This document shows positions 60,101-63,100 of a stretch of 64,000 nucleotides of DNA, in pieces. Source of the DNA: Escherichia coli (lineage in GTDB: Bacteria > Pseudomonadota > Gammaproteobacteria > Enterobacterales > Enterobacteriaceae); the NCBI RefSeq assembly GCF_002854065.1, contig NZ_CP024153.1, one strand, 5' to 3'. Every line of letters begins with the position of its first letter. Within the stretch, counting starts at the first letter, position 1. Made by a program: the position numbers.

Positions 60101-63100
60101 TATGGTATGATGCTTACCGCATCTGTAGGAAAGACGACTCAGCATACCGCAGTCAATGTTTCATTGTTGTACCTGTAGATCTCAATCTTCCAGAGCGTAT
60201 TCAGGAAAATCAGGCCAGGGTTCTGGATATCTGGTGTGGCGCTTCCGGCCTTGTATCTGGGTTATTCATGGTCTCGATCCAATAATTGATCCCAAGGAGA
60301 TCATAGTGAGATCCAAAAGAGATCCCCGGATCGCTCCAGCATGCGCTGTAACTGGCTTTAACGTCTGTCTGGATCGACTGCGGAATGTAAAATGTTGACT
60401 GTTATATGCATAATCTAATACTGTGATATGCAACGGTATTTACTGAGGTATGTATATCTGTTGACTGCGATACGTATTACTACATCCTTTTGTGGATAAC
60501 CGTTGAGGATCAAGATGACGAGCGAAAATAATAGCTTACTTCTGAACCTTCAGGAAGTTGATAAGACAACCGGTGAAGTTGTTAAGCTGGATGTCAACAG
60601 CACCAGTACCGTGCAGCCAGTAGCGCTCATGAGACTCGGTCTCTTCGTCCCAACTCTGAAATCAACAGGGAAGAGCAAGGCGAACCGGAAAAACGTTACA
60701 GACGCGACTGAGGAGCTTGTACAGCTGTCCATTGCCAAAAGCGAAGGATACACTGACGTTAAGATCACCGGTTCGCGTCTTGATATGGACACGGATTTTA
60801 AAGTCTGGCTGGGGATAATTCGCTCCATGTCGGAGTATGGGGTAAAAAGTGACACCCTGGAACTGTCGTTCGTCGAATTCGTTAAGATGTGCGGATTTGA
60901 CTCCCGTCGTTCAAACAAAAAAATGCGCGATCGCATCAGTAATTCCCTGTTTAAACTCGCCTCGGTTACGCTGAAGTTCCAGAGCGAGACCAAAGGATGG
61001 ACCACCCATCTGGTGCAGTCAGCCTATTATGACATCAACGAGGATATCGTTGAGATCAAGGCTGAACCTAAGCTGTTTGAGCTTTACCACATGGACAGAA
61101 GGGTACTTCTGCGGCTGAAAGCCATTGACGCCCTGCAGCGCAAGGAATCAGCCCAGGCGCTTTATACCTACATCGAAAGTCTTCCCCAGAATCCTGCACC
61201 TATTTCCATGAAACGGATGCGTGACCGGCTGAATCTCACCTCAAATGTCTATACGCAGAACCACACGGTGCGTAAGGCGATGGAGCAGCTGCGGGATATT
61301 GGTTATCTGGATTACACTGAGTTTAAACGTGGCCGAGCCACCTATTTCAGCGTGCATTATCGCAACCCCAAACTCATCAGTGGTCCTGTGAAGGTTCCGC
61401 GCAAAGAGGAAGAAGAGAAGGCGCCAGAGCAAAATTATGACGAAGTCATTAAGGCGCTGAAGGCTGCTGGCATCGATCCCCTTAAACTGGCCGAAGCTCT
61501 CTCAGCGATGAAGCCAGAAAATTGACTGTCATATGTGATTTCAGGCCGTGATACGCAGATATTGACTACGGTATGCGGGTTTAACGGCGATATTCCCAGG
61601 TCTGTGCACTGCTCCACACGTGTTAACATGCCACAGTCAATTTTTCAGTAAAGCTCTATACCCCTTACGAAAATCTCAATCGGATGGGCTTTGTTGAATA
61701 AATCGAACTTTTGCTGAGTTGAAGGATCAGATCACGTATCTTCCCGACAACGCAGACCGTTCCGTGGCAAAGCAAAAGTTCAAAATCACCAACTGGCCCA
61801 CCTACAATAAAGCCCCCATCAACCGTGGCTCCATAACTTTCTGGCTGGATGATGAAGCTATTCAGGCCTGGTATGAGTCAGCAACACCTTCTTCACGAGG
61901 CAGACCTCAGCGCTATTCTGACCTTGCCATCACGACTGTGCTGGTCATTAAACGCGTATTCAGGCTGACCCTGCGCGCTGCGCAGGGCTTTATTGATTCC
62001 ATTTTTTCTCTGATGAACGTTCCGCTACGCTGCCCGGATTACAGCTGTGTCAGCAGGCGGGCAAAGTCGGTTAATGTCAGTTTCAAAACGCCCACCCGGG
62101 GTGAAATCGCACACCTGGTAATTGATTCCACCGGGCTGAAGGTCTTCGGTGAAGGCGAGTGGAAAGTCAAAAAGCATGGCCAGGAACGCCGCCGTATCTG
62201 GCGTAAGCGGCATCTCGCCGTTGACAGTAAAACACATGAAATCATCTGCGCTGACCTGTCGCTGAACAATGTGACGGACTCAGAAGCCTTCCCGGGTCTT
62301 ATCCGGCAAACTCACAGAAAAATCAGGGCAGCATCGGCAGACGGCGCTTACGACACCCGGCTCTGTCACGATGAACTGCGGCGTAAGAAAATCAGCGCCC
62401 TTATCCCTCCCCGAAAAGGTGCGGGTTACTGGCCCGGTGAATATGCAGACCGTAACCGTGCAGTGGCTAATCAGCGAATGACCGGGAGTAATGCGCGGTG
62501 GAAATGGACAACAGATTACAACCGTCGCTCGATAGCGGAAACGGCGATGTACCGGGTAAAACAGCTGTTCGGGGGTTCACTGACGCTGCGTGACTACGAT
62601 GGTCAGGTTGCGGAGGCTATGGCCCTGGTACGAGCGCTGAACAAAATGACGAAAGCAGGTATGCCTGAAAGCGTGCGTATTGCCTGAAAACACAACCCGC
62701 TACGGGGGAGACTTACCCGAAATCTGATTTATTCAACAAAGCCCCGTTGATGCGTCAATACCGTAGGTAAATTTAGCAACTAGAAACCATACCATTATTG
62801 GCGGCAAAGTAATTGCAAATAAAAATGCTAAGCCTCTTTCTCTATCGTCCATTTCAGCGCTCCTTTTTTGGTTCCCAGACTTTATAGCCGTTACGTTCAA
62901 CCTCTGCTTTTGCCGCTTTGGTTTTACCCGGTTCTGCTATCGAACGTAGGAGGATCAGCGTTTCAATAGCGAGTGATTCATGCAACATCATCTGTCCTGC
63001 CGGTGGGAATGTTACGCCAGATAGCGTTTCGGTTATTGCCTTCAGCTCATCGCGCAGTGAGCCAAAATCCGCATCTGAAGCACGGTCAAAAAGGTAATCC

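Follow-up and report, generated by a model that had tools for sequence, protein, structure and literature searches.

An intact IS903B without a flanking target duplication forms the seam between an IncFIB(K) replicon and an IncN-like traK-stbA segment in a family of hybrid plasmids

Inspection of a 64-kb stretch of Escherichia coli DNA (hereafter the window, referring to the whole stretch analysed) revealed a complete IS903B of 1057 bp on the plus strand (61687..62743), with 100% identity over 1057 bp to annotated copies in many plasmids. The left terminal inverted repeat GGCTTTGTTGAATAAATC (18 bp, 61687..61704, plus strand) and the right terminal inverted repeat (62726..62743, minus strand), which is its perfect complement, form an exactly matching pair, and a search of the 64-kb window for GGCTTTGTTGAATAAATC at up to three mismatches detected only these two matches, both exact, where 0.12 would be expected by chance. 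The size of about 1057 bp and the 18-bp repeats are those of IS903B, and the ORF at 61719..62687 (plus strand) encodes a transposase of 322 aa from a TTG start (PGAP) or 307 aa from a GTG at 61764. This is a single IS5-family DDE transposase (NCBIfam NF033579, 348.7 bits versus a cut-off of 140), and the Pfam families DDE_Tnp_1 and DDE_Tnp_1_5 were also matched on the identical transposase product. The fully identical copies are annotated as 'IS5-like element IS903B family transposase', and 1642 of the 5000 best records have ≥99% identity to the window element. The window copy therefore shares with the known element its length, perfect 18-bp repeats, one DDE transposase ORF and complete nucleotide identity. 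No second IS903 copy was found within the 64-kb window, which is a slice of a larger replicon, and with one IS903 copy in these 64 kb a Tn903-type composite transposon or an inversion was rejected.

Regarding the left flank, the repA gene encoding the IncFIB(K) replication initiator is located at 60515..61525 (plus strand) and is annotated as 'RepB family plasmid replication initiator protein' in identical plasmids. The RepFIB(K) downstream iterons, of the TTGACTG..GTATG type, occupy 61519..61644 and belong to repeat families common to the region upstream of repA; IS903B begins about 40 bp past the last downstream iteron, and sopA/parB are present upstream of repA. The flank including the 3' part of repA has 96-99.5% identity to Klebsiella plasmids typed IncFIB, and the Klebsiella-like initiator gene with iterons both upstream and downstream points to an IncFIB(K) replicon. 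Approximately 106 bp of the downstream iteron region of Klebsiella IncFIB(K) plasmids are missing from the plasmid family to which the window belongs, including pRHB31-C01_3, and this deletion is bounded on each side by a copy of an 18-bp iteron core (window 61518-61535 versus 3650-3755 in the related locus L002). At 53882-54967, a 37-bp unit (GGGCGGATTTCCACACGGCACCGGCGCCCGGCAAGGT) is present in 29.4 tandem copies with 91% matches; this array is located some 2.7 kb past the parB/sopA genes of the IncFIB(K) module, from which an IS1 (55566-56338) separates it, and could be a candidate for a sopC-like partition site.

The right flank begins with a truncated traJ gene, encoding the type IV coupling protein, on the minus strand (62733..62852), in which 36 native codons (62744-62852) are followed by three codons and a stop inside IS903B. 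The translation of this stub is MDDRERGLAFLFAITLPPIMVWFLVAKFTYGIDAST followed by GLC and the stop, and 34 of its 36 native residues are identical to the N-terminus of the 509-aa TraJ of pRSB201. A full-length TraJ of about 509 aa has a nucleotide-binding domain, while here only the 36 N-terminal codons are left and the gene is a remnant; the original prediction that the right end of the element truncates a small ORF was thus right about the truncation but not about the size of the gene, the ORF being the first 36 codons of a traJ of about 509 codons. Next to it is traK, an IncN-like relaxosome accessory gene encoding 138 aa (62854..63270, minus strand), whose product is identical to pRSB201 TraK at 130 of 139 aligned positions (stop included); exactly this TraK occurs in 2436 blocks of the assembly collection. 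The intergenic region between traK and stbA contains a repeat array (63648..63796) resolved by Tandem Repeats Finder as either 13.9 copies of the 11-bp unit AGACTACAAAG or 2.9 copies of a 52-bp unit, which from its position we take to be the IncN oriT/stbA-upstream repeat region. The 5' part of stbA (63855..63922, plus strand) follows where this gene is annotated in relatives, and stops at 63922/63923, where the end of an IS91-family element interrupts it.

The order and orientation of traJ, traK, the repeat-rich intergenic region and stbA are the same as in the IncN transfer-origin region of pRSB201 (JN102341), with a nucleotide identity to this classical IncN plasmid of about 89-90%. In contrast to the traI-traJ-traK/oriT/stbABC arrangement of IncN, the window keeps only the 36 codons of traJ and lacks traI and the other transfer genes. 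At about 90% identity, the right module is best classified, from sequence comparison, as a member of an IncN-like lineage rather than as classical IncN. An intact traJ of this lineage was not found, the best intact traJ being that of classical IncN at about 90%. An uninterrupted right flank of high identity was also sought at nine of the ten places encoding the exact TraK (L007-L013, L015 and L016) and rejected, traJ being cut by an IS903-type element in all nine.

Regarding the far end of this flank, the IS91-family end in stbA abuts GAAC (GTTC on the other strand); the stbA homology of relatives ends at 63922, and no PLSDB record extends past this position. The final ~80 bp of the window (from 63923) recur on the minus strand at 22752-22831, near an IS91-family transposase gene (21313-22512, NF033538, 309.6 bits) that abuts an IS50 transposase gene. 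The sequence upstream of the IS50 gene is presumably cut off 3 nt before the ATG, and the gene beyond it (24289-25083) is, we assume, aph(3')-IIa. The insertion of the IS91-family element in stbA looks specific to the plasmid of the window.

The 9-bp sequence to the left of IS903B is AATCGGATG (61678..61686), the final bases of the IncFIB(K) backbone, and that to the right is CCGTTGATG (62744..62752), inside traJ. As originally predicted, the two differ, being identical at four of nine positions with the terminal GATG among them, and in the 20 bp on either side of the element the longest common word is TCAAT (5 bp), out of register. Alignment of the left flank to uninterrupted Klebsiella IncFIB plasmids such as pKP1814-2, which reads ...aatcggatg/ctgagacgg at this point with no interruption, stops exactly at 61686, and alignment of the right flank to IncN plasmids such as pRSB201, which reads ...tatttag/ccgtggatgg at the matching point, begins exactly at 62744. 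The comparison with uninterrupted plasmids that had been proposed thus assigns the sequence up to 61686 to IncFIB(K) and the sequence from 62744 to IncN traJ. A shift of the element boundaries by a few bp, named beforehand as the outcome that would overturn the claim, was rejected, since the inverted repeats and the outside homology on both sides fix the boundaries and no shift uncovers a duplication. The window copy in this respect departs from the usual IS903B insertion, which is bracketed by a 9-bp direct repeat; such repeats, the mark left by normal IS903B-mediated insertion, have been reported for the IS903B-flanked Tn6363 (PMC5955447). The absent duplication reflects the history of the window copy and not the nature of the IS903B element.

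Between 81 and 83 complete plasmids in PLSDB have the identical IS903B junction with both flanks. The hosts are mainly E. coli isolated from pigs, pork, poultry, wastewater and people, apart from a few Klebsiella, and several countries are represented. Two of these plasmids, pYPE12-101k-tetX4 (CP041443; hereafter pYPE12) and pYUSHP6-tetX (MW423609), have been named among the tet(X4) hybrid plasmids of the IncFIA18/IncFIB(K)/IncX1 type (PMC8557919). In both, the arrangement repA-IS903B-truncated traJ-traK-stbA is 100% identical to the window across 60515-63922, whereas the window departs from these hybrids at 63923, with the IS91-family end in stbA, and is only about 97% identical to pYPE12 in the sil region; no match to the tet(X4) segment of pYPE12 was seen in the window. 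No fewer than 81 public plasmids in the hybrid family share the junction, which means that the IS903B seam is inherited across the IncFIA18/IncFIB(K)/IncX1 hybrid lineage.

One other IS903-like copy is present in pYPE12 (65950-67001), 87.5% identical and with unrelated flanks, adjoining the sil operon. This copy is also without a target duplication (CAAAATATC / TTAGGATGA) and is missing at the corresponding place in the window (~32657). The resistance region of the window (1-32112) is heavily structured by IS26, with at least seven copies or fragments (1-620, 3163-3982, 8588-9407, 13468-14289, 18421-19240, 25277-26096 and 31293-32112).

The two junctions were also found apart: of the PLSDB records, 96 contain the left junction and 93 the right one, while 81-83 contain both. 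The right junction (the IS end followed by CCGTTGATG and the traJ stub) also occurs with another left flank, a dsbA/alkene-reductase/OsmC cluster ending in CCGAAGCGG, in NCBI assemblies (L008, L010 and L012 on contigs of 4.5-4.7 Mb and L015 on a 305-kb contig), and CP067274 is a chromosome-sized carrier of this junction. In these four assemblies the block is located at several different sites, the cluster includes thioredoxin and TetR genes, and remnants of IS1 or IS5 are present beyond stbA. The IS903B of the dsbA context differs from the window copy at 16-17 sites spread over positions 7-978 of the element, whereas IS positions 979-1057 and the following 671 bp are identical to the window; further right the sequences diverge again, and the whole right flank is about 92-93% identical. 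The contrast between 16-17 differences in 1057 bp and none in 671 bp (Fisher's exact test, p ~3-4e-4) shows that the segments of the dsbA context have different histories and that one recombination breakpoint lies in the final 79 bp of the element. In Klebsiella plasmids, the dsbA left junction is in turn joined to two other right flanks, with additional mosaic alleles of the IS.

Similarly, the left junction (the IncFIB(K) backbone ending in AATCGGATG, followed by the IS) was found with another right flank, GTCTTACAT, inside an IS26-like remnant in pRHB31-C01_3, where the IS903B is the same as the window copy save for 20 differences clustered at positions 501-830. The traK-stbA-repE module of this plasmid is located about 54 kb away, with traJ cut shorter by an IS1 (at the position equivalent to 62832 in the window). 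A direct descent of the window arrangement from pRHB31-C01_3 through a ~54-kb IS903B-to-IS903B deletion was rejected, given the shorter traJ stub and a second IS903B that is a fragment located elsewhere. In L007 (GCA_019584195.1, 6460-7516), an IS903 variant of 96% identity cuts traJ 68 bp nearer to traK, and this is an independent truncation. The flanks of the variant, GTTCTTATG and ATTGCAAAT, again show no duplication, and the variant adjoins another replicon, of the Rep3/ParAB type, and a PIF1/AAA_30 helicase gene.

Two duplication-flanked ancestors were sought, one with AATCGGATGctgagacgg after an IS903B at the IncFIB(K) site and one with the left IS end after traJ ending in CCGTTGATG, and neither matched any PLSDB record at 80% coverage. 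A degenerate pattern for both reciprocal junctions gave one match among the GTDB representative genomes and four among the JGI metagenomes, none of them genuine, as the five carry other 9-mers (CCTCTGATG, CCGCCGATG, CCGCTGATG twice and CCTTTGATG) and unrelated flanks. The best coverage of a synthetic reciprocal-product query among 5,426 complete E. coli genomes was 36%, corresponding to the IS alone. Neither AATCGGATG nor CCGTTGATG is present beside another IS903 end in the window or in pYPE12, and a second copy with swapped flanks (...CCGTTGATG/IS or IS/AATCGGATG...) was not found in the window, pYPE12, PLSDB, the E. coli genomes, GTDB or JGI. No discussion of this particular IS903B junction was found in the literature searched.

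Thus, the intact IS903B is the seam of two unrelated plasmid modules, an IncFIB(K) replicon and an IncN-like traK/oriT/stbA segment. Judged from its flanks, which are unrelated backbones and not two halves of one locus, a simple insertion can be excluded, and the flanks from unrelated backbones, together with relatives in which each junction is found apart, joined to other partners and to mosaic IS903B alleles, support the original reading of an adjacent deletion or a recombination between two copies in place of a simple insertion. Decay by point mutation of the 9-bp duplication of a simple insertion could draw on the four shared positions and the common GATG, but it would require five substitutions in 9 bp beside flanks conserved at 99-100%, which is not credible, and the flanks continue as IncFIB(K) and as IncN traJ, respectively, and not as one locus; the probability of this explanation is negligible. 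A repeat-induced misjoin across a multicopy IS is scarcely more probable: IS903B is multicopy in many such hosts and IS misjoins do occur in short-read assemblies, but the same junction and flanks recur in the 81-83 independently sequenced complete plasmids, the isolate of pYUSHP6-tetX (MW423609) is listed as PacBio-sequenced, and the many independent assemblies make an artefact very unlikely.

Regarding the founding event, the likeliest explanation, at about even odds, is that two IS903B copies, one in each backbone, underwent homologous (RecA-type) recombination. Such an exchange would have left one hybrid IS903B whose left and right flanks stem from two different insertions, so that the 9-bp flanks would differ, and the seam would then have been passed down through the whole IncFIA18/IncFIB(K)/IncX1 hybrid lineage. 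Homologous exchange inside IS903B has occurred around this junction, as seen in the mosaic alleles and the breakpoint in relatives, and these mosaic alleles and the breakpoint in the last 79 bp favour recombination between copies over transposition. Against recombination, the two parental insertions that it requires are hypothetical, given the negative ancestor searches, and the window IS903B has no internal mosaic and matches the commonest allele throughout; the contexts with other partners could also be later derivatives of the window arrangement and not independent witnesses. Alternatively, the seam may have been made by transposition of IS903B, a possible but less probable origin, either within one molecule, where an IS end attacks a site on its own molecule by replicative transposition and the intervening DNA is deleted, or between molecules, where a cointegrate of two plasmids later loses the second IS copy and adjacent DNA. 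By either route one flank would be that of the old donor and the other that of the new target, and hence no duplication would bracket the element; the predicted signature, in which the IS is intact, a duplication is missing and the flanks come from different contexts, is the one seen. IS903B reportedly generates deletions through replicative transposition within a molecule (PMC4471558), which would give the same signature as the observed seam, and both replicative and intramolecular deletion events are within the capability described for this element (PMC4471558). Transposition needs no prior second insertion, fits the failure to find duplication-flanked ancestors, and would account for a right junction common to several left contexts, as expected if a resident IS keeps gaining left flanks. 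However, a single resident IS would be expected to have one sequence, whereas the IS differs at 16-17 sites beside 671 identical bp, and neither a cointegrate nor a reciprocal junction was found in PLSDB or in the 5,426 complete E. coli genomes. A further argument against transposition is that IS903 relies mostly on cut-and-paste movement and forms cointegrates as a minor outcome. Since the ancestral and reciprocal junctions were not found, deletion and two-copy recombination are not told apart, and we lean towards homologous recombination as the founding event over transposition, at about evenly balanced confidence.

The arrangement resembles the reorganisation of plasmids by IS26, in which copies without duplications likewise mark replicative transposition or homologous recombination that fuses or deletes segments (He et al., 2015; PMC4471558), and IS903B is named in the same paper as a further element with such activity (PMC4471558). 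In contrast to the IS26 cases, the element here is IS903B, no reciprocal copy with swapped flanks was found, and the event is not reconstructable in the same way. Public records already contain the element, the plasmid family and the phenomenon, and the scar is of a common kind; the locus serves as a worked example of how an IS copy without a duplication is read as the scar of a rearrangement, and has little importance beyond bookkeeping.

It is conceivable, though we consider it improbable, that 'IS903B-traJ stub-traK-oriT repeats-stbA' is a portable cassette that recombines repeatedly via its IS903B end, carries an orphan IncN-type origin and is selected as a minimal module. If so, the cassette would have entered IncFIB(K) hybrids, the context of the dsbA cluster and chromosome-sized contigs, the truncation of traJ by IS903-type elements at two different positions would reflect selection for a minimal origin module, and non-conjugative resistance plasmids carrying it would be mobilisable in trans by an IncN-type helper.

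For the hybrid plasmids themselves, the rearrangement appears to have kept the basic IncFIB(K) replicon nearly whole, while it would have removed traJ, traI and the remaining IncN-like transfer genes and left traK, the repeat-rich origin region and stbA beside the IncFIA repE. Close relatives are typed as non-mobilizable in PLSDB, and the seam offers an explanation of why the hybrid plasmids are without a coupling protein and relaxase of their own. In this plasmid family, through which tigecycline resistance by tet(X4) is spread, the seam marks the point at which an IncFIB(K) replicon was joined to an IncN-like origin/stbA-IncFIA segment.
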